From IMG/VR virus record IMGVR_UViG_3300042894_008610: a DNA stretch of 64,000 nt; one strand, given 5' to 3'. Positions 6,193 to 62,251 of the stretch are shown here, one piece after another. Below the pieces are notes generated by a model. The model made no database searches. It was given only the letters and a program-made list of their open reading frames with translations, and had not been told where the DNA came from. Position numbers and translations under genes: made by a program. Source of the stretch: a virus. Its lineage: Duplodnaviria; Heunggongvirae; Uroviricota; Caudoviricetes. Each line of letters begins with the position of its first letter. Position 1 is the stretch's first letter.

Positions 6193-6201
6193 AAAATAAA
6201 A

Positions 6202-6600: not shown

Positions 6601-6677
6601 TATTAAAAAAAAAGTTTCAACTTGTTTGGGTAGATTAAACGGTAAAAACTTATATTTGTGGGTATTTATCTTTAACT

Positions 6678-7571: not shown

Positions 7572-7608
7572 ATAAAAACCCCCACTTTAAGTGAGGGTTT
7601 TTTGTTTT
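7572..7608. terminator. bidirectional rho-independent terminator, family hairpin CCCCCAC-TTTAA-GTGAGGG + T-run
   Basis: stem 7579-7585/7591-7597, T-run 7598-7608; sits between convergent genes. Confidence 0.6.
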
Positions 7609-17437: not shown

Positions 17438-17725
17438 ATGGCCGACAGGAATTTTTATATGAGAAGAGTATTGACCAAAATTGTAAAAAATATGGTTAGT
17501 AAAAATCCTGCATTCAAAAATATTCGTTCAGTTGAAATACAATTCTTACTTAAATCTCCTGTTAGAAGCGCAATGTGTGATTGGGTTTATGGTCTTACTA
17601 TCAAGACATATAACGATGATGTTAACCAACCTCAAATAATTTCTCAAATAAAAGAAAGAATTGATTCTGTTACATCACAACTAACAAAAGACACTTTCTG
17701 TCTCACCGACTATTACTTCGAGTAG
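17438..17725 (+). CDS. hypothetical protein
   Basis: 95-aa plus-strand ORF; convergent 13-nt overlap with glf. Confidence 0.4.
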   Translation: MADRNFYMRRVLTKIVKNMVSKNPAFKNIRSVEIQFLLKSPVRSAMCDWVYGLTIKTYNDDVNQPQIISQIKERIDSVTSQLTKDTFCLTDYYFE

Positions 17726-19975: not shown

Positions 19976-21215
19976 AAATGTAATTCATTACTTGTTCTTG
20001 TTTATAGTATTTTTTGATTGGGACACTGTTTTGGAACTTTTGTGAGTGTTGTGTAATCTCATCCCAATTCCAATCAAAATAACCCATTTCTTCAATTCTG
20101 TCGTGTATTCTTTTATCATAGAAGTCCCTGATTAATCTGGCCCTACGATTAATATCTGTTGCATTATTATCAACTGTTGAGTTGTTATTGTTGTATTGTA
20201 GATATAACACCTTCTTTACGTGAATCATCTTGGTTTCTAAAAATGTACGAATAAGAATCTCCAAGTCATCAGCAACAGGTGTTAATTTATTGTGTCCTGA
20301 AATATTATGATAAACACTTCTCTCCCACATTCTAGCGTGGTTTGGCATTGTGATATTGAATCTAATTGTGAGTGGGTTTACATCAGGGTACCAATGAGCA
20401 AGTCTATCAACACCGTCAACATTTACCCAACTGTGTCCAGCATACCCAAAGTCAAAATAGTTATCGTGACGAGCATACCAATTACCAGTCCAATCGTGGT
20501 CATAAAACTTAGGTTCACCGTCCTCGTATATCTCTGAACAATCAGTATAAAGAAATCCCGCGTCAGGGTATTTTAATATTGCATCATTAGCGGTTTCAAG
20601 ACAAGTTGTAACCAAACAATCATCGTGGTCCAATTCAATCAACCAATCACCATCACCTAACATAGCTGCACGATGTTTAGCCAAACCAATATTACCACCC
20701 GATAATGGATAAATCCTGTGAGGTTTTACCCGATAGTCTTTCTCCGCAATTTCAGTTATCATCTCCCAAGTTTCAGGGTCAGGCGAATCATCAACCACAA
20801 CCCATTCCCAATTATCAAAGGTTTGGTTGTTTAAAGACTCATAAGTCCTATAAATCCTTTCTCCTGTTTTGTAGGTTGGTGTGAAAATTGTAAATCTTGG
20901 TCTAAAATATTCACAGTTTCTAAACACAGTCTGACAAACAATTACGTTCGCCAAAATTGCTTCATCAATCGGTTCATCATAGTGAATGTGAAATCTTTTC
21001 AAATGATAGTGTGGGATGTTTACTTCTTCACCAAAACTTATAATTAAGTCAGGTTTATATTTTGTATAATCACCAACGACATCGTTTGTATATGGTAGAT
21101 TATAAACAACAACATCATCAAACAGATGTTCTTCCCAGTATATTTGTGAGATTAAGGTTGTTTCACCTTCCGTACCTAATCCATACACTATTGCTGACGG
21201 TTTTTTTGTCTTCAT
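19968..21215 (-). CDS. family 2 glycosyltransferase
   Basis: FTIFTPTYKTGERIYRTYESLNNQTFDNWEWVVVDDSPD; DxD-like LDHDD. Confidence 0.7.
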   Translation of the reverse strand: MKTKKPSAIVYGLGTEGETTLISQIYWEEHLFDDVVVYNLPYTNDVVGDYTKYKPDLIISFGEEVNIPHYHLKRFHIHYDEPIDEAILANVIVCQTVFRNCEYFRPRFTIFTPTYKTGERIYRTYESLNNQTFDNWEWVVVDDSPDPETWEMITEIAEKDYRVKPHRIYPLSGGNIGLAKHRAAMLGDGDWLIELDHDDCLVTTCLETANDAILKYPDAGFLYTDCSEIYEDGEPKFYDHDWTGNWYARHDNYFDFGYAGHSWVNVDGVDRLAHWYPDVNPLTIRFNITMPNHARMWERSVYHNISGHNKLTPVADDLEILIRTFLETKMIHVKKVLYLQYNNNNSTVDNNATDINRRARLIRDFYDKRIHDRIEEMGYFDWNWDEITQHSQKFQNSVPIKKYYKQEQVMNYIYE

Positions 21216-24960: not shown

Positions 24961-24981
24961 ACTTTGTAAAAGTTTTTTTTG

Positions 24982-25055
24982 TTGCGGGAGTCGGACTCGA
25001 ACCGACGGCCTCAAGGTTATGAGCCTTGCGAGCTACCAACTGCTACCACCCCGCG
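24982..25055 (-). tRNA. trnM: tRNA-Met (anticodon CAU)
   Basis: minus-strand read CGCGGGGTGGTAGCAGTTGGTAGCTCGCAAGGCTCATAACCTTGAGGCCGTCGGTTCGAGTCCGACTCCCGCAAC: T-arm GTCGG/TTCGAGT/CCGAC, anticodon loop CTCATAA, acceptor CGCGGGG/TCCCGCA with a C1:A72 mismatch, no encoded CCA. Confidence 0.8.
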
Positions 25056-31343: not shown

Positions 31344-32507
31344 TTAATCGTTATAAATTGAACCACTTTTATTTTCAGACTCTTCGAATTGATGTTGTTC
31401 CATAATATCTTTAAGTGGTGATTTTTGAGTATCAACTTTAGTATTCATATTATGAATAATCTTATCAAGAGTTAATGCAAAGTCCAGAGTTTCGGATATG
31501 ATACCAACAATTTTATATGGGTCACCATTTGATGCCGGTCTACGGTCTTCAACATAACCCTTCCATTCTTTTGATGTAGACAATGGAACTCTGATTGATG
31601 CACCTCGGTCAGCAACCCCCCAACTAAACTTGTCAATAGATTGGGTTTCGTGTTTACCAGTCAAACGAAGATTGTTATCAGAACCGTAATTGTTAATGTG
31701 TAACTGATGACGTGAATCAAAGGCGTTAAAGATGTTTTTGAAGTATTCATCACCACCTTCATTTCTCATCTTGTCATTTGAGAAGTTACAGTGTAATCCT
31801 GAACCATTCCAATCACCCATCACAGGTTTAGGGTGGAATTCAATCTTAAAACCATAGTCCTCAGACATTTGTTGTAAAATGTATCTCGACATCCACAAAT
31901 CATCACCGGCCTTTAATTTACCTTTGGAGAATACCTGGTACTCCCACTGACCCAATAAGACCTCGGCGTTTGTACCTGTAATTTCAATACCTGCCAAGAT
32001 ACAATTTTCCATATGAGTATCCACAAATTTTCTACCGTTAACTTGTCCGTTACCTACACCACAATAGTATTTTCCTTGTGGTTCAGGATATCCATTCTCA
32101 GGGAAACCCAAAGGTCTACCATCTTTCATAATGGTATACTCTTGTTCAAAACCAAACCAAAGGTCCTCTTCTTCTTCCCCAACAAGACTTCTTGTATTTG
32201 ATACGTGTGGAGTCCCATCGGGATTCATAACCTCACACAACACCAAGAAAGACCATAGACCACCTTCGTTAAGTGAGTTGTGATAAACTCTAACAGGTTT
32301 CAAAATACAATCAGAAAAATGTCCGTCAGCTTGTTGTGTTGATGAACCATCAAAACTCCACTCAGGGCAATCCTTCAGTGTTATAATATCCCCATATGGA
32401 ATATTCTGAAGACCAGTCTCTTCTTTTTCAATCACCTTAACCTTACTTCTAAGATTAGGTTCTGGCTGATACCCATCCAACCACACATATTCTAATTTAA
32501 CTTTCAT
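31344..32507 (-). CDS. glnA: glutamine synthetase, type II
   Basis: KVKLEYVWLDG beta-grasp start; PEWSFDGSSTQQA; FGFEQEYT; GTNAEVLLGQWEYQ; NWNGSGLHCNFS; SIRVP — collinear with eukaryote/bacterial GSII. Confidence 0.9.
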   Translation of the reverse strand: MKVKLEYVWLDGYQPEPNLRSKVKVIEKEETGLQNIPYGDIITLKDCPEWSFDGSSTQQADGHFSDCILKPVRVYHNSLNEGGLWSFLVLCEVMNPDGTPHVSNTRSLVGEEEEDLWFGFEQEYTIMKDGRPLGFPENGYPEPQGKYYCGVGNGQVNGRKFVDTHMENCILAGIEITGTNAEVLLGQWEYQVFSKGKLKAGDDLWMSRYILQQMSEDYGFKIEFHPKPVMGDWNGSGLHCNFSNDKMRNEGGDEYFKNIFNAFDSRHQLHINNYGSDNNLRLTGKHETQSIDKFSWGVADRGASIRVPLSTSKEWKGYVEDRRPASNGDPYKIVGIISETLDFALTLDKIIHNMNTKVDTQKSPLKDIMEQHQFEESENKSGSIYND

Positions 32508-34182: not shown

Positions 34183-35934
34183 TTAAAGTTTTATAATGTA
34201 ATAAGTCTCTCCTTGGACGGTCTCTTCGTGAACCGCCCCATCATTGTGTGACATCATATCATAACTCTCATTATCGATAACAGTATCTATAAATTTTTCC
34301 TTATCAATAAAATCATCTAATTCTAATCCGTAATCCTCCGCGTATCCAGTTGGGTTGTATCTAACTTCATCCAACTTACTTTCAATCATATTTTCAATAT
34401 CATCGTCTGAAAAATCACCTTCAGGATTTTCTTCTATTTCTTCTTTTTGTTCTTCTAATTCAGTAATATAGTCTTCCAATTGACTAATTCTATCGTCAAT
34501 TTTATCAACCTTATCTTCATCATCAATCCCATATTTAATTTTTTCAAGTCTTTCTATCTCCCTTTGTGTTTGTAAAACTCTAGCGTCAATAATTTTAATA
34601 GTTTCAACTTGTTTTGAATCTAATTGTCTTTGGGAATCGTCTAAATAAGCATCAGGCTCTTGGTAAACGTCCTGATTGAAATAATCATCAAACCAATTAA
34701 GTATTTCATCCTCATTAACCGCATTATCCTTAACCCAACTAGCAAACCCATCATACCCTTCAGTATCAACCATATCCTCAACATACTCTCTCAACGCATC
34801 ATCCATCTCCGTCTCGGTACCCACAGTATATTCATCACCATATAGTTCAGTTGCAAATTTTTGCATTCCATAGTGTTGGGATTCCAAAGGTATTAAATCG
34901 TAAACGTCTTTATATTCTTTAAACTCATCTAACTCTTCTTCTAATTGTTCAATCTGAGATAATAAATCATACCTTACAGTATCAGAATTTTCATATTCTT
35001 CTTGAAGTTCACTTATTCTTTCTAAAATATCCGTTCTTCTTTCTTCATCATCTTCACTCATAGATTCGATTTCTCCCTCTGAAACCAAATAATCAAAAAG
35101 TGCGTGTGCCATCAATCCTATAGTTGGGCAATCAGGACCTAACTCCCACTCTTTATCAATTCTTCGTTCATTTGCTTCTTCCATAGACAATCTTTTTTCT
35201 TGAGCAATCCTTTTTTCTTGTTCTTTTTTATCAATATCAGTCTTTGTTATGTAGTAATCTAAATTACTCATTTTGTCTTCATATTTTCTCTCAAGAAAAC
35301 TAATAATAAACGAATACACAACATTAAAGTTTGGTATAGAATTTAAAACATCCTCCATACCAACTCTCACATTTTTAACATAAAAATAAGGTTTGGAGTT
35401 TCTAACAAAAACAATTGTTATTTTTTCCTCAGGATTATTTTTATTAATTAAATAGACAATTTTTTTGTCCCCATATTCCCCATATGTTATGTTAAACGAG
35501 TTTTCACTACTAACGTCGACACATCCTACAGAATCTTTACCATAATAACAAGCGCCTGATTGGGTAGATGGTGAAACAATCAATAATTTATCATCTTCAA
35601 ATATTATGGACTTGTTATTGGTAGTGGTCATATTGTTTAGATATTGACCGGTAAAACTATCTATTTGGTTTTTTAAATCTTCATATGAACCAAACTTATT
35701 AATGTCAGTTGTTTGTAAAACACCTTTAAGTCTTTCAAATTTCTGTGTCAAATCAATAATATTAATTAAGTTAATATTATCCCCTTCTTCAGGGAATTTG
35801 TTTGCAACCCAATCCCAATACTCAGGTTGGATGTATTTTACTATTGACGATAAGAGTGGTAAACTCAGTTTGTCCTTATATTTTGTTGTAAAATCAGACT
35901 TACTTTGTTCTTTTAATAACTTACGGATTGACAT
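34183..35934 (-). CDS. large hypothetical protein with a highly acidic C-terminal half
   Basis: 583 aa; D/E-rich repeats. Confidence 0.55.
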   Translation of the reverse strand: MSIRKLLKEQSKSDFTTKYKDKLSLPLLSSIVKYIQPEYWDWVANKFPEEGDNINLINIIDLTQKFERLKGVLQTTDINKFGSYEDLKNQIDSFTGQYLNNMTTTNNKSIIFEDDKLLIVSPSTQSGACYYGKDSVGCVDVSSENSFNITYGEYGDKKIVYLINKNNPEEKITIVFVRNSKPYFYVKNVRVGMEDVLNSIPNFNVVYSFIISFLERKYEDKMSNLDYYITKTDIDKKEQEKRIAQEKRLSMEEANERRIDKEWELGPDCPTIGLMAHALFDYLVSEGEIESMSEDDEERRTDILERISELQEEYENSDTVRYDLLSQIEQLEEELDEFKEYKDVYDLIPLESQHYGMQKFATELYGDEYTVGTETEMDDALREYVEDMVDTEGYDGFASWVKDNAVNEDEILNWFDDYFNQDVYQEPDAYLDDSQRQLDSKQVETIKIIDARVLQTQREIERLEKIKYGIDDEDKVDKIDDRISQLEDYITELEEQKEEIEENPEGDFSDDDIENMIESKLDEVRYNPTGYAEDYGLELDDFIDKEKFIDTVIDNESYDMMSHNDGAVHEETVQGETYYIIKL

Positions 35935-36194: not shown

Positions 36195-36226
36195 TTAAAA
36201 GGGTGAAGAAATTCACCCTTTTTTTA
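36195..36226 (+). terminator. rho-independent terminator GGGTGAA-GAAA-TTCACCC + T7
   Basis: 36201-36225. Confidence 0.6.
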
Positions 36227-36235: not shown

Positions 36236-37258
36236 GTGATGACAGGGAAATTACAAAGATTAATCGACGATGTTAATAATGGTAAATTTGATATTATCAA
36301 AGATTTTTTTGGTGATATGGAAACTTTTTTGGACTATCTTGGTAAAAAAGGTTTGATACACGAATTAGACCTTATTAACAACGAAGAAGAATTCGAATAT
36401 GAAGTTAACAAAATAGCCCTCGCAATTAAAGAACATAATCCCGAAAAATTTAGAGAATATGTTTTATCTTCATTAAGTGATGTTACTTATGAAAATGGTG
36501 AATACTATGTGACTTTGAATGATAAAAGTAGACTCGCGTATCTTTTTTGTGATGATAGAAGAAATGGTATGTCTCAATCAACAATATCAGAGATACTAGA
36601 TGGTGAATGGGATTTTGATTTTTGGGATACTACCGATAATGTTTATAGGGATGTTATTCAAGAACTAAATAAGGATAATCTTACTTATTTATCAAAAAAA
36701 ATAAGTAACGAATTATCTGACGTTAAGGTAGAACCTGAAACAGAATTGTTAGAAGAAATTGCCGAGGAACAAGGTCATCCTGAATATGTAACCTTAACCC
36801 CCGAGTTGATTCACGACAGAATATTCAATGATGAGGATTCAACAGAAAGTATTTTGAATGAAACCGAAAACATTAAATCAGATTTACACTCATTACATAA
36901 CAGAGCATATGCAAATGCTTATGAAGATGAGGTGTATAGTGGTATAATGGATGAACTTGAAACATTTTTTGATATGCGCCATTCTGATTGGATAACAGTT
37001 CCAAGTAGTGTAAACCCAAACAAATCTTATACCTATTTCAAAGTTAAAATAAATAATTTTGATTCAGAGATTTCCGATTACCTTAATAACGCGAAGAATC
37101 ATAATGAACCATTAAGTAATTATGGTGACTATCTTAGTATTTTGAGTGAAAATATTAGTTATGGTAGTGCCAATTGTTTGGTATATTACACGCCTGATTA
37201 TGCGGATTGGCCAAAAACAAAAGAAAATATTAACGAACTTTTTGGTGACTATTTTTAA
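36236..37258 (+). CDS. hypothetical acidic protein
   Basis: 340 aa; converges on tail-fibre gene 1. Confidence 0.55.
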
Positions 37259-40200
37259 ATAATCCCCTTTAGTTTAGCTTTATCCAAAACTTTTTTAGCT
37301 CTCTCTTCAAGAGATGTTATTCTAACCTCTTGTTCTTTTAACGCTTCAATGTTAACGGCAATCATTTCTTTATAATTCATTGTTAACACTTTACCTTCAG
37401 TATAAATAACTTCAGGAACATAAGGCAAAACTTCTTGAGCAATAAATCCAATAGCTTTTTTGTCATTAGAACTATATTCTTTACCTCTCCATTTAAATGT
37501 GACACCTCTAATACTTAATATCTTATTTAGAGCATCACCGATAGGTTTAACATCTTTTTTCAGTCTTTCATCTGAAGGACCTGTTGGTCCTTGTGGACCT
37601 TGAGCTCCTTGTGCTCCGAATGTTGAACTAGCACCTCCTTGAGCCCCTGGTGCTCCTTGTGCCCCTGTTGGACCTGGTGTTGCAGAACCTTGAGCACCTG
37701 TTGGTCCTTTAAGACCTGTAGGTCCTTGTGCACCGACGGCTCCCTCAAAACCTTGTGAACCTTGAGCTCCTTGAGCCCCTGTTGCACCTTGTGCACCTTG
37801 TGGTCCATTAGGAGACGTTGGCCCTTGAGCCCCTTGAGCTCCTTGAGCTCCAATAGCACCTGAATTTCCTTGAGCGCCTTGAGCACCTTGAGCGCCGGCT
37901 GTACCTGAACCTTGAGCACCTTGAGGTCCTGTTGGTCCTGTTGCACCTTGAGGTCCTGTTGGTCCTGTTGCACCTTGAGCACCTTGAAATCCTTGACCCC
38001 CTGTAGGTCCTACGGCTCCTTGTGAACCTTGAGCCCCTTGAGGTCCTGTTGGTCCTGTTGCACCTTGAGCTCCTTGAGCTCCAACAGGTCCTTGAGCACC
38101 TGTGGCTCCTTGGAATCCCTGCTGACCATTAGGTCCTATTCCACCTACGTCCCCTTGAGCACCTTGCGCTCCTTGGAATCCTTGTCCTCCTGTTGCTCCT
38201 TGAGACCCTTGAGCACCTGTTCCTCCTTGAGCTCCCTGAAAACCTTGTCCTCCTTGCGCCCCTTGTGGACCTTGAGCTCCTGTGGCACCTTGAGCACCTT
38301 GAGCTCCCTGCCCACCTTGCGCTCCTTGTGGACCTATTGCTCCTTGGAAACCTTGTGCTCCTTGAAAACCTTGTCCTCCTTGAGCCCCTTGAGTTCCTGT
38401 TGCTCCTTGAGCACCTTGAGCCCCTTGTGCTCCCTGTCCTCCTGTTGCGCCTTGAGCTCCTTGTGCTCCTTGTCCTCCTGTTGCTCCTTGGACTCCTTGT
38501 CCACCTGTTGCTCCTTGCGCACCTTGGTTACCAACAGCACCTTGAGCTCCTTGGAAACCTTGAGCCCCCTGACCTCCTTGTGCACCTTGTACTCCAACAG
38601 CACCTTGAGCCCCTTGTGCTCCTTGGAAACCTTGTCCTCCTTGAGCACCTTGAGTACCTGATATACCTACAGAACCTTGAGAACCTTGAGCCCCTTGTCC
38701 TCCTTGAGCACCTTGAGTTCCTGATACACCTTGAGCTCCTTGAGCCCCTTGGAAACCTTGACCTCCTTGAGCACCTTGAGTTCCTGTTGTACCTTGAGCC
38801 CCTTGAGCTCCTTGAAAACCTTGTCCTCCTTGAGCTCCTTGGGTTCCTGTTGCTCCTTGAGCTCCTTGAGCTCCTTGAGCTCCTTGGAAACCTTGAGCAC
38901 CTTGGGTTCCTGTTGCACCTTGAGCCCCTTGAGCTCCTTGGAAACCTTGACCTCCTTGAGCCCCTTGGGTTCCTGTCGCTCCTTGTGCACCTTGAGCTCC
39001 TTGTGCTCCCTGTCCACCCTGAGCACCCTGAGTTGCTGTCGCTCCTTGCGCTCCTTGAGCTCCTTGAGCTCCTTGACCACCTTGAGCACCTTGGTTACCA
39101 ACTGCCCCTTGTGAACCTTGAGCCCCTTGTGCTCCTTGTCCACCTTGGGCTCCCTGATTACCTTTAGCCCCTTGAGCTCCTTGCGCCCCTTGGGCTCCTT
39201 GACCACCTTGAGCACCTTGGTTACCAACTGCCCCTTGTGAACCTTGAGCCCCTTGCGCTCCTTGTCCACCTTGCGCTCCTTGTCCACCTTGAGCACCTTG
39301 AGCCCCTTGTGCTCCTTGAGCACCTTGTCCTCCTTGAGCACCTTGTGTTCCCGTTGCACCTTGAGCACCTTGAGCTCCTTGGAAACCTTGTCCACCTTGA
39401 GCACCCTGTGTTCCTGTTGCTCCTTGAGCCCCTTGTGCTCCTTGGGCTCCTTGTCCACCTTGAGCACCCTGTGTTCCTGTTGCACCTTGAGCACCTTGTG
39501 CTCCTTGGGCTCCTTGTCCACCTTGGGCACCTTGGTTACCCTTTCCACCTTGAGCACCTTGTGCTCCTTGGGCTCCTTGTCCACCTTGAGCACCCTGTGT
39601 TCCTGTTGCACCTTGAGCACCTTGTGCTCCTTGGGCTCCTTGTCCACCTTGGGCACCTTGGTTACCCTTTCCACCTTGAGCACCTTGTGCTCCTTGGGCC
39701 CCTTGTCCACCTTGAGCACCCTGATTACCTGTCGCACCCTGAGCCCCTTGAGCTCCTTGAGCTCCCTGTCCACCTTGTGCACCTTGGTTACCAACCGCTC
39801 CTTGTGAACCTTGAGCTCCTTGAGCTCCTTGTCCTCCTTGGGCGCCTTGGTTACCAACCGCTCCTTGTGAACCTTGAGCTCCTTGAGCACCTTGTCCACC
39901 TTGAGCACCTTGATTACCTTTTCCACCTTGAGCGCCTTGAGCTCCTTGAGCTCCTTGTCCTCCTTGGGCACCTTGGTTACCAACCGCTCCTTGTGAACCT
40001 TGAGCTCCTTGAGCTCCTTGTCCACCTTGAGCGCCTTGATTACCTTTTCCACCTTGGGCGCCTTGAGCACCTTGAGCACCTTGTCCTCCTTGAGCCCCTT
40101 GGTTACCTGTTGCCCCTTGAGCTCCTTGTGCGCCTTGTGAACCTTGCCCTCCTGTTGCTCCTTGGGAACCTTGAGCTCCTTGGGCTCCTTGACTACCAAC

Positions 40201-40539
40201 CGCTCCTTGAGCACCTTGGTTACCAGTATTACCCTGAGCACCTTGTCCTCCTTGGGCACCTTGATTACCTTGAGCGCCTTGTGGTCCAGCATTTACATTA
40301 CCTTTCCATCCGGTAGAGTCTATTATTAATCCGTAATTGTTTGTAACTGTATTAGCACTTAAATTTGTATTTTGTACTTGGAATATAGGTGCTGTCTTGG
40401 CAATTTTTAGATATGTTGTTGTTTGATTTACAACATAATTCAATGTAGAACTAGAATATACCAAATCACTTCGAGTATTCCCCGAATCATAAAATTGTAT
40501 TGTTATACTTGCAGGTACTATTATTATATTCTCAGCCAC
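37255..40539 (-). CDS. collagen-like (Gly-X-Y) tail fibre protein with C-terminal S74 intramolecular chaperone (auto-processing) domain
   Basis: ~290 GXY triplets ([11 protein letters not shown]...); C-terminus SDERLKKDV...FKW...IGFIAQEV matches the endosialidase-chaperone/S74 motif; GTG start (MAENIII). Confidence 0.85.
37620..40290 (-). repeat. collagen triplet-coding repeat array (9-18 nt period, many near-perfect copies)
   Basis: read directly; generates spurious Leu-rich and Lys-rich ORFs in other frames. Confidence 0.8.
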
Positions 40540-43500
40540 GTAATTTTTCTTCTAATTCAGTTAATGATGTTTTAAGGACATCCATTCTTTTTTGATTTTC
40601 TTTTACAAAAGATACTCCAAGAGTAACAAGTAGTTCATACTGTAAAGATTTATAACCAAACTTATCTTCCCAAACAATTTCAGGAAAATATTTTTCAACT
40701 TGTTGGGCGATAAAACCTATACTTCGTTTTTTAAGTAAATACTTTTCATTGTCTTTATACAATGAAAGTTGTGGTATATTTTCAACCCAATCAAAAGATA
40801 CACCATTCATATTAACAACATCAATAGCTCTATCAAATTTCTTGATGTTTTCTTTCAATCTTCTATCTGAAGGTGGCCCTTGAGGTCCTTGAGCACCTTG
40901 TGCTCCTTGTGGTCCCGTTTTACCAGCATTACCTTGAGCACCTTGAGCACCTTGTGGTCCTGTAACACTAGCACCTTGAGCTCCTTGAGAACCAGTACCT
41001 CCTGCAGGTCCTGTTGCACCTTGAGCTCCTTGGACTCCTTGTGGACCTGTCCCACCTGTAACAGCTCCTTGAGCGCCTTGTGCTCCTTGTGCCCCTGCAG
41101 CTCCTTTTCCTCCTTGAGCACCTTGTGCTCCTGTGGAACCCTGAGTTCCGGCCTTTCCTGTTGCACCTGTAGCACCTTTTGGTCCCGATGGTCCTTGAGC
41201 TCCTGTTGGTCCTTGAGGTCCTCTTGACCCTTGTACACCTTGTCCTCCTGTCTGACCTGCAGCACCTTGAGCCCCCTGTGTCGCACCCGCAGGTCCTTTT
41301 GTTCCTCCCGCACCTTGAGCACCTGTAGGACCTGGACCTCCTGTAGGACCTGTCGCTCCTTGAGACCCTTGAGAACCTTGAGCTCCAGCGGGTCCTTGAG
41401 CACCTTGTGTAACACTCGGATTCCCTTGTGGTCCTTGTGAACCTGTTGCTCCTGTGGCACCCTGAGCTCCTTGGGTACCTCCTTGAGCACCTGTGGCTCC
41501 TTGTGGGCCTTGAGGTCCTTTTGCTCCTTGAGCTCCTTGAGGACCTCCTTGAGCCCCTATCGGACCTTGGGCTCCTTGAGCTCCTGTAGCACCTGTTGCA
41601 CCTTGAGTACCTCCTGTAGCACCTTGGAATCCCTGAGGTCCTGTAGCACCTGTAGCACCCTGAGCCCCTTGAGGTCCTCCTTGTGCACCAACAGGTCCTT
41701 GAGCACCTGTAGCACCTGTAGCACCTGGAGCCCCTTGCGGAGTACCTTGTGGTCCTTGAGCACCTTGAGCTCCTGTTGGTCCTGTAGAGCCTGTTGCTCC
41801 TTGGACCGCTCCTTGAGCACCTTGATTACCAACAGCACCTGTTTGTCCAGTCGCACCTTGTGCCCCTTGAGCACCTTGAGGTCCTCCTGGATTTCCCTGA
41901 GCACCTTGGGCTCCTTGTCCACCTTGAGCACCCTGTGCACCTGTTGGTCCTCCCTGTGCACCTGTTGGTCCTTGAGCACCTTGGGCTCCTTGAGCACCTT
42001 GTCCTCCTTGTACACCTCCTTGAGAACCTGTTGGTCCTTGAGCTCCTGTCGCACCTGTGGCACCTGTCGCTCCTTGCGTTCCTCCTTGAGCACCTGTTGG
42101 TCCTTGAGCCCCTGTTGCACCTGTGGCTCCTGTAGCCCCTTGAGGTCCTCCTTGTGCACCAACAGGTCCTTGAGCTCCTGTAGCTCCTGTGGCTCCCGTC
42201 GCACCCTGAACTCCACCTTGAGCACCTGTTGGTCCTTGAGCTCCTGTAGCTCCTGTGGCCCCTGTTGCACCCTGAACTCCACCTTGAGCACCTGTAGGTC
42301 CTTGTGCACCTGTTGTTCCATTAGCACCCGTTGCCCCCTGAACTCCACCTTGAGCACCTGTTGGCCCTTGTGCACCTGTTGTTCCATTAGCACCTTGAGC
42401 CCCTTGAGGTCCTCCTTGTGCACCTGTTGGTCCTTGGGCACCTGTTGTACCTTGAGCACCTTGAGCTCCTTGAGAAGCTCCTTGTGCTCCTTGTGAACCA
42501 ACGGCTCCTTGAGCACCTTGTGCTCCCTGATTTCCCTGAACTCCACCTTGTGCTCCTGTAGGTCCTTGGGCACCTGTTGTACCTTGAGCACCTTGAGCCC
42601 CTTGAGAAGCCCCTTGAGCTCCTTGTGAACCAACGGCTCCTTGTGCACCCTGTGCTCCCTGATTTCCCTGAACTCCACCTTGTGCTCCTGTAGGTCCTTG
42701 TGCACCTGTTGTACCAGCGGCACCTGTTGCCCCCTGAACTCCACCTTGAGCACCTGTAGGTCCTTGTGCTCCTGTGGCACCTGTCGCACCTGTTGCCCCT
42801 TGGACACCTCCTTGAGCTCCCGTACTACCTTGAGCTCCTTGAGCACCTGTCGTACCCTGAGCACCCTGAGAAGCACCTTGTGCACCTTGTGAACCAACGG
42901 CTCCTTGAGCACCTTGTGCTCCCTGATTTCCTTGGACACCACCTTGAGCTCCCGTAGGTCCTTGGGCACCTGTCGTACCTTGAGCACCTTGAGCACCTTG
43001 TGATGCACCTTGAGCTCCTTGTGAACCAACGGCTCCTTGAGCACCTTGTGCTCCCTGATTTCCTTGGACACCACCTTGAGCACCTGTTGTCCCTTGAGCA
43101 CCTTGAGCTCCTGTCGCCCCTGTCGCTCCTTGCGTTCCTCCTTGAGCGCCCGTACTACCTTGGGCACCTTGGGCACCTGTGGCTCCTGTCGCTCCTTGTG
43201 TTCCTCCTTGAGCACCTGTACTACCTTGAGCACCTTGTGCCCCTGTCGTACCTTGAGCACCTTGTGAACCTCCTTGAGCACCTTGTGAACCAACGGCTCC
43301 CTGAGCACCTTGGGCTCCTTGTCCTCCTTGTGTCCCACCTTGAGCACCTGTACTACCTTGAGCACCTTGAGCACCTGTCGTACCTTGAGCACCTTGTGAA
43401 CCTCCTTGAGCTCCTTGTGAACCAACGGCTCCTTGAGCACCTTGTGCTCCCTGATTTCCTTGGACACCACCTTGAGCACCTGCAATACCTTGAGCACCTT

Positions 43501-43954
43501 GTGCCCCTGTTGTTCCTTGCGCCCCTTGAGACGCTCCTTGAGCACCTTGTGCTCCTACTGCTCCTTGAGCACCAGTACTACCTTGTGCTCCTTGAGCTCC
43601 TGTACTACCACCCCCACCTTGAGCTCCCGTTGTTCCTTGTGCCCCAACATTTCCTTGAGCTCCTTGAGCACCTTTAATAGTTGTTTGTGGTCCAATCCAT
43701 ACACCGGCATTATTAATCATATTTTGACCACCAACCCATAAACCTGATGGTGAACTTGATATTGTAACACCTGTAGTTGTTATGTCATTATTACTGAAAA
43801 CTACTAATGATGGACTTGTTGTTGCAGAAAATTTGACATCACCCGGTGCAACCATATTAATTTGGATACTATCCGCAGCAGACGCCCCCTCGTATACTAT
43901 ATGAGGCGATGAGTTTCCTGTAGTTCCACTTGGATATATTATTACGTCTGCCAT
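40532..43954 (-). CDS. collagen-like tail fibre protein with C-terminal S74 intramolecular chaperone domain (paralog 2)
   Basis: GXY array; C-terminus [11 protein letters not shown]...FDW...[16 protein letters not shown]. Confidence 0.85.
40850..43650 (-). repeat. collagen triplet-coding repeat array
   Basis: read directly. Confidence 0.8.
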
Positions 43955-43957
43955 ATA

Positions 43958-46900
43958 TTAATTTCTTTCAACCTTTTCTTCTAAATTTGTTAATAGAGAA
44001 TCCAAGTCATCAATAAATACTTGTTGCTCTTTTATGGCTTCTACTAAATAAGCGTTAAGTGAGGTATAGTTTAAACTATAATAACCGCCACCCCTTAATT
44101 CAATTATATCTGGTATTACACTTCTAACTTCTTGTGCAATAAAACCAAACGAGTGTAGTTTACCATCTCGTTTCATTGCCTCATAGTTGGGGTCTAATTC
44201 GTTCCAATCAAATTCAACAGGATTTAATTGTAAAACACTTTCTAACGAGTTTTCAATAGTAGTAATTTCTTGTTTTAAACTAATATCTGAAGGACAAGTA
44301 TTAGGAACACCAATAATTAAACAACCTCCTGTGTCTAGGTCGTAATAAAGTGATGATAAGTCATACCATACGGGAGCAGGTAAAGGAGTTACACAACTAA
44401 GATTTGCACAGTCAGTCGCATTTTCAAACACAGATGTGTTGTTAGTCCAAGTAGTAATATCGTCTGGCGAGTATATGTCCCCATAAAATCCGCGGTTTAA
44501 TGAACAAGCACTACCCGGGTCACCCGCATAATAACCTGAATATTGAAAACAAGATGCTGATGGTGGTCCTGCCGGTCCTGGCGCTCCAGGAGCACCCTGA
44601 GCACCTTGTGGTCCCGTATCACCTTGAGCTCCCGTAGCACCTGTTAGTCCGTCGGCACCTGCAGGTCCTGGTGCTCCTTGAGCACCTTGTGTTAACCCTT
44701 GTGCACCTTGTGGTCCTTGAGCGCCTTGTGCACCTTGTGGTCCTTTTGCACCTGTAGGTCCTGGTGCTCCTTGTGCACCTAATGGACCGGCACCTCTAAG
44801 TTCCCCTATTCCCCCTTGAGCCCCCTGAGCACCTGATGGTACAATTGGTGTAGGTCCTTGAGCACCTTGTGCACCTTGTCCTCCACCTGCTCCTTGAGCT
44901 CCTTGGAATCCAAGAGGTCCTTGAGCACCTTGAGTAGCACCTGTTGGTCCTTGAGCCCCTGTAGCACCTTGTGGTCCAGGAAGTCCAGCAATTCCTTGTG
45001 TTCCAACATTTCCTTGAGCACCTGTAGGTCCGGGAGAACCTTGAGCACCTGTTGCACCGATATTTCCAATAGGACCAGGACCTGTTCCTTGAGCTCCTTG
45101 TGGTCCTTGAACACCAGGAAATCCTGTGTTTCCTTGTGCACCTGTGGCACCTGTTGCACCTGTTGGTCCAACATCTCCTTGTGAACCTTGAAATCCAAAA
45201 GTACCGGTACCACCACCAGCACCTGTATTTCCAACATCACCTTGTGCACCTGAAAAACCTGTGGCACCTTGAGCTCCTTGAGAACCTGTAGGCCCAACCG
45301 GACCTGTTGCTCCACCCGCTCCTTGAGAACCTTGAGCTCCTGTAGCACCAGTATTTCCAACATTACCTTGTGAACCTTGAGCTCCTTGAGCCCCTTGTGG
45401 TCCTCCTCCTCCCACAGGACCCGCAAAACCTGGAAATCCTGTAGAACCTTGAGAACCTTGAGCTCCTTGAGCCCCTTGTGGTCCAACGGCCCCTTGAGAA
45501 CCCTGAGCTCCTTGAGCTCCTTGAGCACCTATTGTACCTGAATTACCTGTTGGCCCAAAGACTCCTACCGTTCCTTGAGCTCCTTGTGCTCCTTGTGGTC
45601 CTCCTGAACCTTGTGGACCTCGAGCCCCTTGTGAACCCTGAGCACCTTGTGCTCCTTGTGCACCCACATTACCTGTAGGTCCAACGGCTCCTTGTGAACC
45701 CTGAGCACCTTGTGCTCCTTGTGCACCTTGGTTACCTGTAGGTCCAACGGCTCCTTGTGAACCCTGAGCTCCTTGGGCTCCTTGCGCACCTTGGTTACCT
45801 GTAGGTCCAACGGCTCCTTGTGAACCTTGAGCTCCTTGTGCTCCTTGTGGTCCTCCTGAACCTTGCGGTCCAACGGCTCCTTGTGAACCTTGTGCTCCTT
45901 GTGCTCCTTGTGGTCCTCCTGAACCTTGCGGTCCAACGGCTCCTTGTGAACCCTGAGCACCTTGTGCTCCTTGTGCACCCACATTACCTGTAGGTCCAAC
46001 GGCTCCTTGTGAACCCTGAGCACCTTGTGCTCCTTGTGCACCTTGGTTACCTGTAGGTCCAACGGCTCCTTGTGAACCTGTATTACCTTGAGCTCCTTGG
46101 TTACCGGTATTTCCTTGGGCTCCTGTATGTCCTGTTGAACCTTGTGCTCCTTGAGCTCCTGTTGCACCTCCATTACCTGTTGGTCCAACCGCTCCTTGGA
46201 AACCTGTGTTACCTTGTGCTCCTTGATTACCTGTGTTTCCTTGTGCACCTGTATGTCCTGTTGAGCCCTGAGCACCTTGTGCACCTGTTGCCCCACCATT
46301 ACCTGTAGGCCCTACATTACCTTGTGAACCTTGAGCCCCTTGTGCCCCTTGAGCCCCTTGAGCCCCTTGTGGTCCTACATTACCTTGTGAACCTTGTGCT
46401 CCTTGTGCTCCTTGTGGTCCTGTTGAACCTGTTGGTCCGACATTACCCTGAGCTCCCTGATTACCTTGAGCACCTGTTGGCCCCACGTTTCCTTGTGCAC
46501 CTGTGTGTCCTGTTGAACCCTGAGCACCTTGTGCTCCTGTAGCTCCCGCATTACCTGTTGGTCCTACGTTACCCTGAGAACCTTGATTTCCTTGTGCACC
46601 TGTATTACCAGTATTACCTTGAGCACCTGTATGTCCTGTTGAACCCTGAGCGCCTTGTGCTCCTGTCGCACCTCCGTTACCTGTTGGTCCGACATTACCC
46701 TGAGCGCCCTGATTACCTTGTGAACCTTGTGACCCTGTTGCACCTGTTGGTCCGACATTACCTTGTGCTCCCTGATTACCTTGTGAACCTTGTGACCCTG
46801 TCGCTCCTGTTGGTCCGACATTACCCTGAGCACCTTGATTACCTTGAGAACCTTGAGCTCCCACATTACCTTGTGCACCAGGATGTCCTGTTGAACCCTG

Positions 46901-47536
46901 AGCTCCTTGAGCACCTGTCGCACCTCCGTTACCTGTTGGTCCGACATTACCCTGAGCACCTTGATTACCTTGAGAACCTTGAGCTCCCACATTACCTTGT
47001 GCGCCAGGATGTCCTGTTGAACCCTGAGCTCCTTGTGCACCTGTCGCTCCTCCGTTACCTGTTGGTCCGACATTACCCTGAGCGCCCTGATTACCCTGAG
47101 CACCTGTTGGTCCCACGTTTCCTTGTGCACCAGGATGTCCTTGAGAACCTTGAGCATTTGCTGAACCTTGAGCTCCTTGATTACCCTTTCCACCTTGTGA
47201 ACCTTGTGAACCCTGAGCACCCGTATTTCCAATGGCTCCTTGAGCTCCTTGATTACCTTGGAATCCTGTTATATTTGTTCCAGGTCCTAACCAAGCACCT
47301 GTACCATTTAATACTTGAATTCCTCCAATAGTTAGATTATTAATGATATTAATATCATCATACGCTTGGATACCACCCGATGACATTAATAATGTAGAAC
47401 CCCACTTTATAGAAGTACCAGCACCATAAGGTCTGACCTCTAACCTCAAAGTTCCCGTATTTTCAAAATCAATATAGGGAATCCTTCCGGGATTCGGGAC
47501 TAAATTACCAGGTACAATTGTTATATTTTTTGCCAT
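43958..47536 (-). CDS. collagen-like tail fibre protein with C-terminal S74 intramolecular chaperone domain (paralog 3)
   Basis: GXY array; C-terminal Cys-rich knob then SDISLKQEI...FDW...FGFIAQEV. Confidence 0.85.
44580..47265 (-). repeat. collagen triplet-coding repeat array
   Basis: read directly. Confidence 0.8.
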
Positions 47537-47597: not shown

Positions 47598-47879
47598 TTA
47601 AATAATATGTTTTTTGATTATATCAACAGCTTCAGTTAATTCATTATAGTCCCTATCAGGAGTATACATATGAGGAATGGTTTTTTCTTTAGTTTCTTCA
47701 ATAATGAGTAATGCTGGTACAAAATCATTTTCTGTTAATTGTGAAAAGATATCATACTCTTCTTCATACTCATCAATGTCTCTATCAACGAAGTCAATGT
47801 TCTCTTTGACTAACATCTCTTTGAAGTCAGTACAATGAGGACAGCCTTTCATTGTATAAACAATAATTGTTTTACTCAT
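47598..47879 (-). CDS. glutaredoxin-like (NrdH/Grx) protein
   Basis: CPHC active site near the N-terminus (YTMKGCPHCTDFK). Confidence 0.7.
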   Translation of the reverse strand: MSKTIIVYTMKGCPHCTDFKEMLVKENIDFVDRDIDEYEEEYDIFSQLTENDFVPALLIIEETKEKTIPHMYTPDRDYNELTEAVDIIKKHII

Positions 47880-48187
47880 TAGTTCATTAGTATTTCAGTT
47901 AATTCAGGTGTCGGCACAACTCCTGTTCTTGTCATATCAACTACACCATTTTTGAAGAGTTTTAAAGTCGGTACCGCTCTGATTCCCATCTCTGTTCTTA
48001 CGAAGTCGTGGTCTGTGTCAATATCGTATTTGTATACAGGTATTTTTGTTTCATTCTCAGATGTGATTTTCTCAAGTGATGATAACAATACTTTACAAGG
48101 CCCACACCAAGTTGCGTATAAATCTAAGAGGAAACTTTCCTTGTTATTTATTTTTTCTTTCAATTGTTCTGTCGTTAACTGTTCCAT
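47879..48187 (-). CDS. trx: thioredoxin
   Basis: WCGPCK active site. Confidence 0.85.
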   Translation of the reverse strand: MEQLTTEQLKEKINNKESFLLDLYATWCGPCKVLLSSLEKITSENETKIPVYKYDIDTDHDFVRTEMGIRAVPTLKLFKNGVVDMTRTGVVPTPELTEILMN

Positions 48188-48863: not shown

Positions 48864-50198
48864 TTATCTTCTTCCTTCTAACTCTGTGAAGTCATATAGA
48901 CCTGGACCAACCTCGAATGCCACATCAGTGATTTCCTTAGGTAATACTATATTATTTGAACCCATAATATTCATAATCATAATCTCAGGTAAAGTGGCAA
49001 CACACGCAGGTATTGACTTAACCTCAGGACAATTTAGAACTGCAAAATATGCTAATTTTTTAAGTTCACATATCGCATCAGGAACACTAGTTATACACCC
49101 ATCAAATGTAAGCCTATCTAAGTTTGTGAATCTTGAAATTGTATCAGGAATTCTAAATGTAATTGGTGTTCTAGTGTTTCTAGTTGAGATATTAATTTTG
49201 TGTATGTCGTCAGGTAATGAATCAAATAACTCATCCAAACCATACAACCCAATAAACTTACCTACAGAACCAGACTCAAAGTTATCAATAACCAATTCTT
49301 TACCTTGGTGTGTTAAACCTTTAGCAAATTCAGGTTTGAAGTAATCTTTAAGTTCTGCCATAGGACCGTTCAAATACTCAATTAAATTAACACTACGGTC
49401 ATCCTTATCCATAAACTGATTTGATTGGAAATGGAATTGGTATCTTTCTTTTGGTAATCCTGTTGTTGGAGATACATTAGTATCATTTGGATTATAGATA
49501 ACATACAAAGGTCCGTCTTTAATGTATCTATCGAAGTAACTTAAACCAGGTGCTGAAGTACACCAACGAGTCTCTTGTTGATTACCACCGTAAAAACAAG
49601 CGGCTTCTTTACCTCTTTCTCCTTTATCAGATATCTTAATAACTCTCCAATTTTTACCCTCAAATCCAGATTCAGCACCAGGGTGTACTGGCGCAGCCTT
49701 TCTTTCGGCTTTAGTTGTTGTCGCCATAGTTAAGTCAAAGTCCTTAACAGCATCGTATAAAGCTTCAGGTGTTAGTTTATTGATATCCCTCATTTCAAGA
49801 GGTAACTTACCTTTAAACCTTTTAAACTTGGTCAAATCCTCAGTCACTTTGTAAAGGTCTTCCATAAACCTTTCTCTCATAACTTTAACTTCTCTCTCGT
49901 GACCTTGTTCACCTCTTGGGATTTCAGTCTTAACGTTCATATAACTCTTAATTAACCAAGGAGTGTATTCACCAACTTTAACTCGAGATAATTCCTCTTT
50001 TGATGCTCTTTCCAAATCAACATCATTTAAACGAGATGTTGGGTCGGCTTGGATTAATTCGAAGAACTCTTGTTTGCTCAATGGAGCCTTTAAAGGTTTA
50101 CCTTCTTTATCTTTTTTAGGTAATACAAACTTATCCATCAAAACTTCAAGTCTTGATTGTTCCAATATGATTTTCTTAAGTACGTTTGCGAACTTCAT
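48864..50198 (-). CDS. hypothetical protein with C-terminal leucine-rich repeats; N-term MKFANVLKKIILEQSRLEVLM (motif family)
   Basis: LRR-like LxxLxLxxCxxLxxIP repeats in the last ~120 aa. Confidence 0.5.
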   Translation of the reverse strand: MKFANVLKKIILEQSRLEVLMDKFVLPKKDKEGKPLKAPLSKQEFFELIQADPTSRLNDVDLERASKEELSRVKVGEYTPWLIKSYMNVKTEIPRGEQGHEREVKVMRERFMEDLYKVTEDLTKFKRFKGKLPLEMRDINKLTPEALYDAVKDFDLTMATTTKAERKAAPVHPGAESGFEGKNWRVIKISDKGERGKEAACFYGGNQQETRWCTSAPGLSYFDRYIKDGPLYVIYNPNDTNVSPTTGLPKERYQFHFQSNQFMDKDDRSVNLIEYLNGPMAELKDYFKPEFAKGLTHQGKELVIDNFESGSVGKFIGLYGLDELFDSLPDDIHKINISTRNTRTPITFRIPDTISRFTNLDRLTFDGCITSVPDAICELKKLAYFAVLNCPEVKSIPACVATLPEIMIMNIMGSNNIVLPKEITDVAFEVGPGLYDFTELEGRR

Positions 50199-60902: not shown

Positions 60903-61703
60903 TTATAGATAATCAAAAAGTTCACTAGACTCATTACGCAACTTACGTAAAGCCTTCTCTTTAATTTGTCTAACACGTTCCTTAGTTAATTGGAAGTCAT
61001 TACCAATATCTTCAAGTGTACGGGTATTTCCTGACAATCCGTAGTAATCTTCAATGATAATTTTTTCACGGTCATCTAAAACTTCTAAGATACCTTTCAA
61101 CTTGTCTTTAAGGATGTCTTTTGTATGAAATCCGGAGTCAGGTGCCAAAGCATCAGGATTACTCAAAACATCCAACAAAGTATCACCATCTTCATTGAGG
61201 GGATTATCATAATTAACCGTATAAGGAAGGGTTACAAACTTTTCGGGTAACTCAACCCCACTCTTCTCAAGTTCTTTTTTAGCCTTTTGAAGTTCTTGAA
61301 CAACATTCACAGGAAGACGAATAGTTCTCGCATTCTCGTTAAGTGATTGTAGGATTGATTGTCTTACCCACCAAACCGCATATGAAATAAACCTTAGCTG
61401 TTTGGACCAATCGAAATTTTCAACAGCTTTAAGTAATCCAAGATTACCTTCAGCAATTAGGTCACAAAGTTCTAATCCTTGATTTTGGTATTGTTTGGCA
61501 ACAGTAATTACAAATCGGAGATTACCTGTTAACAATTCTTGTTCAATTTGACGTTTCTCTGTTAACGTCAAATCATCCGATAACATTCTCTGAGCGAGTT
61601 GTTTTTCTCTATCAGGTGTCATAACTTTTATCTTACGAATATCTTTAAGATAAGTTGCAATCTCTTCTTGATTAATAGGGATACTTAAATTTTTGTCTTT
61701 CAT
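60903..61703 (-). CDS. RNA polymerase sigma-70 family sigma factor
   Basis: region 2 LRFVITVAKQYQNQGLELCDLIAEGNLGLLKAVENFD...RFISYAVWWVRQSI; region 4 TLEDIGNDFQLTKERVRQIKEKALRKLR; the track start is a GTG at 61712, ATG at 61703. Confidence 0.85.
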   Translation of the reverse strand: MKDKNLSIPINQEEIATYLKDIRKIKVMTPDREKQLAQRMLSDDLTLTEKRQIEQELLTGNLRFVITVAKQYQNQGLELCDLIAEGNLGLLKAVENFDWSKQLRFISYAVWWVRQSILQSLNENARTIRLPVNVVQELQKAKKELEKSGVELPEKFVTLPYTVNYDNPLNEDGDTLLDVLSNPDALAPDSGFHTKDILKDKLKGILEVLDDREKIIIEDYYGLSGNTRTLEDIGNDFQLTKERVRQIKEKALRKLRNESSELFDYL

Positions 61704-61708
61704 ATGTC

Positions 61709-62251
61709 TCACTTAATGTAGGTTTTTAAAATTTGTTGTTCTTCTTCTGTTAGTGTTTCAAGTCCTTGGTCGTATATTTTTTCTAAAAGGTCGTCTAATG
61801 TAGGTATCTTGATTTTGTTTTTTGAGCGACGAATGATATCAATAATGTCGTCTTCATCATCATCGTCATCTTCATTTTCAAGAAATTCTAATATTGAAAA
61901 CCCTTCCGTTCCATTCTTAACATTCGTCATATTAACAGATGACAAATTTAGTTCCGAATTTGGATTATCGATGTTAAAAAACCACTTTTCGTCATCATCA
62001 GGTAAAAAGACTGACATATTGTCAGTTTCACTGACAAAAATTCCATATATGTTACCGTAAAAAGCATCGTGAACATATGATTTAATCTCATCTTTAGTCA
62101 TTTCACTCTTGAAATGAAAAAAAAACAAACCTGAATTGTAAAGATAAGAAAAATTTTCAGACCCAACGACTGGTGATACCACCATAATAATATCGTTTTT
62201 GTGTTTGTCGTTAAAGTCCTTAAAAGAGATAATTAAGTTGTACTTTGTCAT
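61709..62251 (-). CDS. hypothetical acidic protein (poly-Asp/Glu tract)
   Basis: 180 aa; ENEDDDDDEDD. Confidence 0.5.
   Translation of the reverse strand: MTKYNLIISFKDFNDKHKNDIIMVVSPVVGSENFSYLYNSGLFFFHFKSEMTKDEIKSYVHDAFYGNIYGIFVSETDNMSVFLPDDDEKWFFNIDNPNSELNLSSVNMTNVKNGTEGFSILEFLENEDDDDDEDDIIDIIRRSKNKIKIPTLDDLLEKIYDQGLETLTEEEQQILKTYIK

Follow-up and report, generated by a model that had tools for sequence, protein, structure and literature searches.

Our analysis of a 64,000-nucleotide stretch of viral DNA (IMG/VR record IMGVR_UViG_3300042894_008610, Caudoviricetes), referred to below as the window, revealed three consecutive genes for giant collagen-like proteins. On the evidence of their sequences, we slightly favour the reading that the products of this trio are the three different chains of a single ABC heterotrimeric collagen fibre of an uncultured aquatic jumbo phage, approximately 257 nm long, assembled by a heterotrimeric, self-cleaving Peptidase_S74 (S74) chaperone and acting as a virion adhesin. 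The co-variation in length of the three collagen arrays and the charge-complementary coiled coils of the S74 domains together point to one heterotrimeric fibre rather than to three.

The three open reading frames (ORFs), lettered A, B and C by their order from the 3' end, follow one another head to tail on the minus strand in the order C, B, A and encode proteins of 1192 (43958..47536), 1140 (40532..43954) and 1094 aa (37255..40539), respectively, as the first-pass annotation of this DNA had described. The start of chain B lies 3 nt past the stop of chain C, and the GTG start of chain A, which overlaps the end of chain B by 8 nt, is kept as V-A/S-E-N-I-I-I in relatives; these adjacent and overlapping genes are likely co-translated. 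Each chain combines an N-terminal domain of 84-94 aa, about 299 Gly-X-Y triplets and a C-terminal S74 domain. The GC content of the trio genes (45-56% against about 32% outside) is raised because of the Gly, Ala, Gln and Pro codons. Orthologs of the trio recur in the same order C, B, A, by N-terminal and S74 types, in dozens of independent contigs, and the trio occupies the same place in related contigs of up to 326 kb.

Pfam Collagen (PF01391) matched all three chains with E-values of 1e-72 to 1e-112. The arrays occupy aa 91-992 of chain C (44561..47266), aa 95-1028 of chain B (40871..43672) and aa 85-988 of chain A (37576..40287), all on the minus strand; counted in runs of at least three, they hold 296, 298 and 297 triplets and span 902, 934 and 905 residues, i.e., about 2.7 kb per gene and not the 0.8 kb first ascribed to them. 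Chains A and C are near-continuous (runs of 139 and 125 triplets in A, a run of 230 in C), whereas in chain B seven triplets are followed by one extra residue, mostly Gln, giving a 22-aa or 66-nt period that recurs about 33 times. The roughly 290 uninterrupted triplets proposed earlier for every chain thus hold in number for all three and in continuity, roughly, for A and C, but not for B. The 22-aa period of B-type chains is kept in the 14 non-redundant genomes examined, sometimes as six triplets followed by S-S-V-Q, which again makes 22 residues. The arrays are composed of Gly (35-38%), Gln (17-26%), Ala (15-20%) and Thr (5-11%), with only 2.5-7% Pro and very few charged residues.

At the DNA level, Tandem Repeats Finder (TRF) detected higher-order periods of 126 and 189 nt in A (two and three times 63), of 66, 132, 198 and 396 nt in B and of 63, 126, 252 and 378 nt in C. 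The units are imperfect, with 60-84% matches within a gene, and exact repeats reach at most 79-143 nt inside a gene and 27-34 nt between genes. The earlier description of triplet repeats near-identical within and between genes is therefore overstated, and for the comparison between genes it is wrong. At 0.286 nm per residue, the triple helix predicted for the window is about 257 nm long, in line with the more than 250 nm predicted at first sight, and the range across the related phages is 84-311 nm.

The lengths of the arrays were compared in 24 non-redundant trios, comprising 15 IMG/VR genomes (the window included) and nine trios from a separate metagenome-contig scan. Lengths were expressed as triplet-equivalents: runs of at least three triplets were counted, short gaps contributed their length divided by three and rounded down, and inserted domains of at least 15 aa were excluded. 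In the order C/B/A, the IMG/VR genomes gave 98/98/98 (L073), 118/118/117 (L021), 142/140/137 (L071), 142/141/134 (L067), 144/143/141 (L068), 153/154/152 (L002), 153/154/151 (L074), 157/170/161 (L066), 173/159/171 (L069), 131/160/145 (L072), 177/174/177 (L075), 195/195/194 (L092), 222/221/219 (L078), 299/299/300 (the window) and 304/300/301 (L080). The later, independent scan of metagenome contigs added 362/361/359, 158/157/155, 157/154/152, 156/155/150 and 141/140/137, and also four unequal trios on short contigs (134/133/98, 143/149/121, 142/141/121 and 100/141/119). The longest trio found (362/361/359, about 311 nm) lies on metagenome contig Ga0209033_1000604 (L170). Array length thus varies from 98 to 362 triplets between genomes, yet the median standard deviation within a genome is 2.1 triplets. 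Pairwise correlations of the array lengths were 0.985-0.988, and matching as close as that observed never arose in 100,000 column permutations (p <1e-5). Eleven of the 24 trios agreed within 2% and 16 within 5%, while five differed by more than 10%. Equality to one triplet in 100-360 would have no physical meaning for independent flexible threads, but would be expected of chains pinned together at both ends.

The matched quantity is the number of triplets and not of residues, since chain B is always 10-40 residues longer. The matching is also unaffected by domains of 70-330 aa inserted in one chain (inserts of 180, 329 and 232 aa in L069, L071 and L078, respectively). In L069 (IMGVR_UViG_3300023184_000136, 4942-7927), the insert is a PA14 carbohydrate-binding domain (E 2.6e-11) in mid-array, with 91 triplets before it and 82 after it; other inserts, of 92-236 aa and without a Pfam match, occur in L071 and L078. 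Counts proved reproducible, with 195/195/193 obtained on eight contigs of different samples and a 303/284/299 type on seven contigs, three of them with the complete trio. Among near-identical phages, chain B measures 1160 aa in L084, L086 and L088 and 1138 aa in L085 and L087, a difference of one 22-aa unit, with A and C unchanged. Both forms occur on independent contigs, and the difference between L084 and L085/L087 looks like a snapshot of an uncompensated indel. Gene conversion was considered as a cause of the equal lengths and rejected, given that exact matches between genes do not exceed 34 nt and the periods differ; equality imposed by the assembler was likewise rejected in view of the reproducible counts across independent assemblies.

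The second line of evidence comes from the C-termini. Peptidase_S74 (PF13884) matched all three chains (E 1e-11 to 1e-15; 45-58 bits against a curated cut-off of 22), at aa 1083-1192 of chain C (43961..44290; E 8e-13), aa 1029-1140 of chain B (40535..40870) and aa 989-1094 of chain A (37258..37575), all on the minus strand. A profile of the three C-termini matched PDB entries 6f45 (phage long tail fibre distal subunit), 8jov (tail fibre) and 7dc3 (the ICA domain of MyRF), with the S-D-x-R-x-K dyad motif aligned in all three matches. The Ser-Lys dyad S-x4-K stands at the start of the domain as S-D-E-R-L-K, S-D-R-R-L-K and S-D-I-S-L-K in the window chains and was found in 45 of 45 chains from 15 genomes; the F-x-W and GFIAQ motifs are present as well. 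The S74 intramolecular-chaperone cap which had been proposed for each chain is thus borne out, with the dyad motif reading S-D-x-R/S-L-K. The three S74 domains of the window are about 32% identical to each other.

The proposal of a distinct distal region in each protein fares less well: it applies to the 1192-aa protein, and in the other two the cleavage Ser abuts the last Gly-X-Y. In chain B the predicted catalytic Ser directly follows the last Gly-Pro-Pro (G-P-P-S-D-R-R-L-K), and in chain A Ser989 is itself the Y residue of the last triplet (G-P-S-D-E-R-L-K). After the predicted self-cleavage, chains A and B would therefore end in bare collagen, and three fibres each with its own receptor-binding tip, as the first-pass annotation had them, are not what these sequences suggest. 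What remains of that picture is a set of giant collagen-like fibre proteins capped by S74, rather than three independent tip-bearing tail fibres. The distal module of chain C (aa 993-1082; 44291..44560, minus strand), with six Cys and rich in the aromatic residues Tyr and Trp, has no Pfam match and is a candidate binding knob; everything else at the far end of the mature fibre would be collagen. The module is confined to one chain in every genome, and its orthologs of 80-106 aa have an even number of cysteines (6, 8 or 10). Directly upstream of chain C lie genes for a glutaredoxin (47598-47876; PF00462, E 4.5e-9) and a thioredoxin (47879-48187; PF00085, E 5e-20), the latter syntenic in 13 of 14 relatives. 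A chain with 6-10 cysteines in its tip has redoxin genes next to it, and these may simply serve nucleotide reduction.

In T5 pb1 and MyRF, the terminal helix of the S74 domain forms a central parallel trimeric coiled coil that drives trimerisation (PMC4690869, PMC8326128), in which an Arg at a g position of one helix forms salt bridges with acidic residues on the next (R695 with E693/D697/E700 in MyRF, R1386 with E1384/E1391 in pb1; PMC8326128, PMC4690869). The terminal helices of the 45 chains from 15 genomes aligned gap-free with the alpha4 helix of MyRF, and their three types differed at the positions of this network. A-type helices keep the full network of donor and acceptors (Arg or Lys at position 13 in 15/15, E11 in 11/15, E18 in 13/15). 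B-type helices keep the donor only: Arg at position 13 (13/15) is accompanied by Y11 (9/15), N15 (12/15) and K18 (13/15). Conversely, C-type helices are left with the acceptors, as position 13 is Glu or Gln in 13/15, position 11 is Asp or Glu in 13/15 and E18 is present in 14/15. In the window trio the same logic appears one heptad earlier (R6 and E11 in A, R6 and K11 in B, F6 and D11 in C). As to the heptad core, the a positions are hydrophobic in all types, d17 is hydrophobic in B and C, and at d10 a polar or charged residue in 13 of the 15 A-type helices contrasts with Ile, Leu, Met or Val in the B and C types; Gln or Asn occupies d3, compared with Asn in MyRF. The donor/acceptor pattern also holds, under a rougher classification, across the 133 unique classified S74 domains of all loci retrieved.

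The self-complementary network between g-position Arg and e- or b-position acids that marks canonical S74 homotrimers appears to be retained by the A type only. A charge score, taken as a simple count over two heptads and summed over the 15 genomes, gave +90 for A3, -27 for B3 and -60 for C3, as well as +86 for a mixed trimer in the ring order A>C>B>A and +3 for the opposite order. B3 and C3 thus come out as repulsive, and the better ABC order is on a par with a canonical homotrimer. At the level of this two-heptad count, the S74 interfaces would favour a mixed trimer over homotrimers, and the complementary loss of donor and acceptor in two paralogs would be the expected signature of an obligate mixed trimer.

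Further support is provided by the way in which the modules are shuffled. All complete loci contain exactly three genes, with one of each N-terminal type and one of each C-terminal type. In L078 these are permuted: the C-type N-domain is joined to a 22-aa-periodic array with the B-type S74, the A-type N-domain to an uninterrupted array of 221 triplets with the knob and the C-type S74, and the B-type N-domain to an array with the A-type S74. This arrangement is what results when two adjacent blocks change places through breaks within the arrays, and each of the six modules is still present once; L170 has the same permuted gene order by a rougher N-terminal classification. For a heterotrimer the permutation would be neutral, because the same three N-domains and three C-domains still meet, whereas for three homotrimers it would put the only tip on a different anchor. 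The earlier suggestion of recombinogenic arrays and modular tip exchange is upheld insofar as the arrays have served as recombination joints (L078, and L170 by gene order), although DNA identity between genes is too low for ready exchange.

A weaker line of evidence is that, within the 70 triplets closest to the S74 domain, irregular interruptions of different chains coincide more often in the same genome than in pairings across genomes (29 against 21.3 +/- 3.9, P 0.04). All four chain C interruptions of L072 coincide with those of chain B, and L066 and L080 have positions at which all three chains are interrupted. L066 (IMGVR_UViG_3300042471_001276) presents a peculiar case: over about seven periods chain B has 14 triplets plus one residue (43 aa), the same stretch of chain A has 13 triplets plus two residues (41 aa, six periods), and chain C is uninterrupted. 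Per period, one chain loses a residue and another gains one, and L078 does the same for three periods. Stagger swaps, followed by mod-3 register bookkeeping of the +1 interruptions of B and the -1 interruptions of A in L066 and L078, were tried as an explanation and rejected, as the bookkeeping does not close over successive periods.

In the proposed mechanism, the terminal helices of the three S74 domains would come together as a parallel ABC coiled coil, whose charge network, working only in the ring order A>C>B>A, would select both composition and handedness. The S74 trimer would set the register of the chains and nucleate the triple helix at their C-terminal ends, with folding proceeding towards the N-termini, after which each chain would cut itself at the conserved Ser and the chaperone would leave. 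At its virion end, the mature fibre of about 257 nm would then display the small N-terminal domains of the three chains, all different, and at its far end one disulfide-rich knob, that of chain C. The looped-out residue of chain B every seven triplets (about 6 nm) could be a hinge or a modification site, and array length would change in quanta of seven triplets while selection keeps the three arrays equal. We give about even chances to the fuller proposition that the trio forms an obligate viral ABC heterotrimer whose self-removing S74 sets composition, ring order and register, with arrays co-evolving in seven-triplet quanta over a 4-fold range (84-311 nm), and in which the Thr/Gln/Ser-rich looped-out residue of chain B may be a hinge or an O-glycosylation site served by galactofuranose and glycosyltransferase genes of the phage. 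As for function, the fibre is inferred to be a long, flexible line for adhesion, 84-311 nm in length depending on the phage, with which host cells could be caught within a wider radius. Virion fibres of phages, polinton-like viruses and virophages have the same layout, in which a very long trimeric shaft joins a small N-terminal domain to a self-cleaving S74 cap, and the PA14 insert in one ortholog together with the aromatic, disulfide-rich knob suggests glycan binding.

Several observations weigh against a heterotrimer. The strongest is that the approximately 33 extra residues of chain B have no counterpart in A or C and would each have to bulge out of an ABC helix. Proven heterotrimers such as C1q, with its kink, and type IV collagen nevertheless contain single-chain insertions, and those of chain B are therefore not fatal. 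Five of the 24 trios are unequal, 131/160/145 and 134/133/98 among them, although four of the five may be arrays collapsed on short metagenome contigs, and the related genomes in the length statistics are not phylogenetically independent. The co-localisation of interruptions is marginal, the charge score is as simple as described above, and the self-complementary coiled coil of the A type makes an A3 trimer possible. Moreover, we know of no precedent for a heterotrimeric S74 domain or a viral heterotrimeric collagen.

The principal alternative, which we consider possible though distinctly less probable, is that the trio forms three separate homotrimeric fibres (A3, B3 and C3) of equal reach, each folded by its own S74 chaperone and with a trimeric binding tip on C3 only. 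All characterised S74 proteins are homotrimeric (PMC4690869, PMC8326128). A periodic insertion shared by all three chains of B3 would be the ordinary way to accommodate interruptions, and the self-complementary A-type coiled coil and the unequal trios fit separate fibres as well. However, independent threads would have no physical need to match within one triplet in 100-360, A3 and B3 would be left without any distal domain after cleavage, and the coiled coils of B3 and C3 would put like charges where canonical S74 trimers form salt bridges. It would also have to be accepted that the permutation in L078 transferred the only tip to another anchor and still left one of each module.

An improbable variant has the homotrimers packed side by side into an in-register rope of nine chains pinned at both ends, which would demand equal lengths as well. 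Length matching and co-localised interruptions require in-register association and not a shared triple helix, and to that extent they suit a rope. The charge pattern, however, speaks against B3 and C3 here too, nothing would pin the distal ends of A and B once S74 is cleaved off, and the arrays offer very few charged residues for lateral packing.

We regard it as very improbable that the trio proteins are not virion fibres and instead act as secreted or host-surface collagen-like proteins or as an intracellular scaffold during infection. No recognisable tail, baseplate or capsid gene was found within the 64-kb window, and the neighbours of the trio are redoxins, methyltransferases and proteins without recognisable function. 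The N-terminal domains have no known relatives among characterised families: those of chain C (aa 1-90, beginning MAKNITIVP; 47267..47536), chain B (aa 1-94; 43673..43954) and chain A (aa 1-84; 40288..40539), all on the minus strand, are 23-33% identical to each other and had no Pfam or PHROG match; that of chain C is presumed to be a virion-anchor module. A collection of 5.8 billion proteins yielded seven relatives, all of them metagenome fragments on short contigs and one, from an estuary metagenome, identical to chain A. A tblastn search with the B-type N-terminal domain of the related locus L002 against 50,697 phage records returned no match and no cultured relative, and an AlphaFold2 model of the chain C domain built on a seven-row alignment was unusable (predicted local distance difference test score, pLDDT, 42.6). 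On the other side, the S74 domains matched only the C-terminal ends of tail fibre, tail spike and baseplate PHROGs (plus those of a few PHROGs of unknown function), tail-fibre chains in PDB and eukaryotic MyRF; the conserved MA-x-N-I-I-I-x-P start shows no evident signal peptide; and a phage PA5oct protein annotated as structural has distant similarity to the 444-aa protein encoded upstream of the trio. Attachment to a tail, which the first-pass annotation took for granted, is nonetheless left without support by the N-terminal domains and the neighbouring genes, and the label of tail fibre would rest only on the usual company of S74 plus the weak PA5oct hint.

An assembly artefact, in which collapse or expansion of repeats equalises the arrays or creates the paralogs, is scarcely credible: short-read contigs do often break inside the arrays and some metagenome variants of one lineage differ in count, but the N- and C-terminal domains are distinct, orthologs are syntenic, identical counts were obtained in up to eight independent assemblies, the units are imperfect (60-84% matches) with different periods per gene, and collapse would not equalise three unlike arrays to one triplet. 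The possibility raised at the outset, that the genes are an assembly collapse of a single locus, is excluded by N- and C-terminal domains only 23-33% identical and by the syntenic trio in dozens of independent contigs; to judge from this divergence, the window paralogs are old.

The window itself is phage DNA, as indicated by a DUF3310/nucleotide-kinase protein, an SbcC-like protein, an RNA ligase, two DNA methyltransferases, a sigma-70 factor, an amidase and one tRNA. A megablast search of the flanks against the 50,697 phage records found nothing, and the window has no close relative among these deposited phages. With the 444-aa protein (48864-50198) as anchor, 62 IMG/VR loci were retrieved whose contigs reach 326 kb, with a conserved synteny of methyltransferase, 444-aa protein, thioredoxin, trio, a convergent 340-aa gene, and 583-aa and 261-aa proteins; a scan of the genome contigs gave no prophage or host clue. 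Over roughly half its length, the 444-aa protein shares 27-30% identity with a protein of the Pseudomonas jumbo phage PA5oct that is annotated 'structural protein', and it is weakly similar (E 0.016) to the acidic 583-aa protein (34183-35934) downstream of the trio; given these two similarities, the trio may lie between two related virion genes. The convergent 340-aa gene overlaps the chain A stop by 4 nt, and just upstream of it a perfect 11-bp hairpin with T-runs on both sides (36197-36222) resembles a bidirectional terminator. A promoter and terminator scan of 36-49 kb gave no interpretable signal.

A glycan-synthesis cluster (17713-21215 and 9548-10267 of the window) comprises a UDP-galactopyranose mutase, two adjacent glycosyltransferases and a further GT2 enzyme. 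The mutase is 58% identical to glf in records of Streptococcus suis phages (phrog_9677, E 7e-140). This cluster might glycosylate the Thr/Ser-rich collagen fibre, for which the glycosylated collagen-like protein BclA of Bacillus is a parallel, or might modify the host surface. The window also encodes a single tRNA-Met (CAT; 24981-25055, minus strand), the sigma-70 family factor (60903-61712), a glutamine-synthetase-like protein (31344-32507) and an SPFH/Band 7 protein (14094-14948).

The architecture of the trio can be compared with several known systems. The S74 fibres and tailspikes of phages (K1F endosialidase, the L-shaped fibre pb1 of T5, the neck appendage of GA-1) share with it the C-terminal PF13884 domain, the Ser-Lys dyad and the terminal coiled-coil helix, as well as, presumably, the sequence of events: trimerise, fold the upstream shaft and self-cleave. 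The trio differs in having a collagen shaft in place of a triple beta-helix, three non-identical, charge-complementary chains in place of one homotrimer, and two chains with only collagen before the cleavage site. The ICA domain of MyRF is a homologous S74, with a coiled-coil helix that aligns gap-free and salt-bridge positions that can be mapped; MyRF is, however, a eukaryotic membrane transcription factor, a homotrimer, and has a beta-helical stalk. The same two-domain layout as in the trio, collagen repeats plus Peptidase_S74, has been described for fibres of polinton-like viruses, virophages and some phages (PMC12220804). These are single modular genes and assumed homotrimers, and no length-matched three-gene module or chain-specific periodic interruption was reported for them.

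Among collagens proper, the closest parallels are analogies, with no homology claimed. Complement C1q is a heterotrimeric collagen whose A, B and C chains come from three clustered genes and are selected by a C-terminal domain. In collagen IX, the choice of chains is made by the C-terminal NC2 alpha-helical coiled coil (PMC10404678). Like these, the trio has three distinct co-encoded chains with collagen domains of equal length and a C-terminal domain proposed to set composition and register, and interruptions of a single chain are tolerated, the kink of C1q being an example. Unlike them, it has an unrelated trimerisation domain that is predicted to be removed by autoproteolysis, no hydroxyproline, only 2.5-7% Pro, a helix 3-10 times longer and a viral, prokaryotic origin. 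The bacterial collagen-like proteins Scl1 and Scl2 of Streptococcus and BclA of Bacillus resemble the trio in having no hydroxyproline, Gln/Thr/Ala-rich and length-polymorphic arrays, and a flanking globular trimerisation domain; they differ in being homotrimers, much shorter, and in retaining that domain. Our literature searches found no report of a heterotrimeric phage collagen or of this fibre family. Hence, the domain architecture is known, and the length-matched three-gene module with a complementary chaperone is undescribed as far as the searched literature shows.

Should three separate homotrimers turn out to be right, the trio would be an ordinary, though very long, set of S74-capped fibres. 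To our knowledge, all viral and bacterial collagen-like proteins described so far have been treated as homotrimers; if the heterotrimer is true, it would be the first collagen of three different chains known in a virus and would represent a new assembly principle for phage fibres. It would also constitute a second, independent solution to chain selection and register in collagen, next to those of C1q and the collagen IX NC2 domain, and would offer a natural cleavable register-control module where collagen engineers now borrow foldon or NC2, which stay attached. Finally, with three arrays kept equal over 98-362 triplets, this phage family provides a natural experiment in length control, bearing on what sets the length of a fibre and what that length buys a phage in dilute water.

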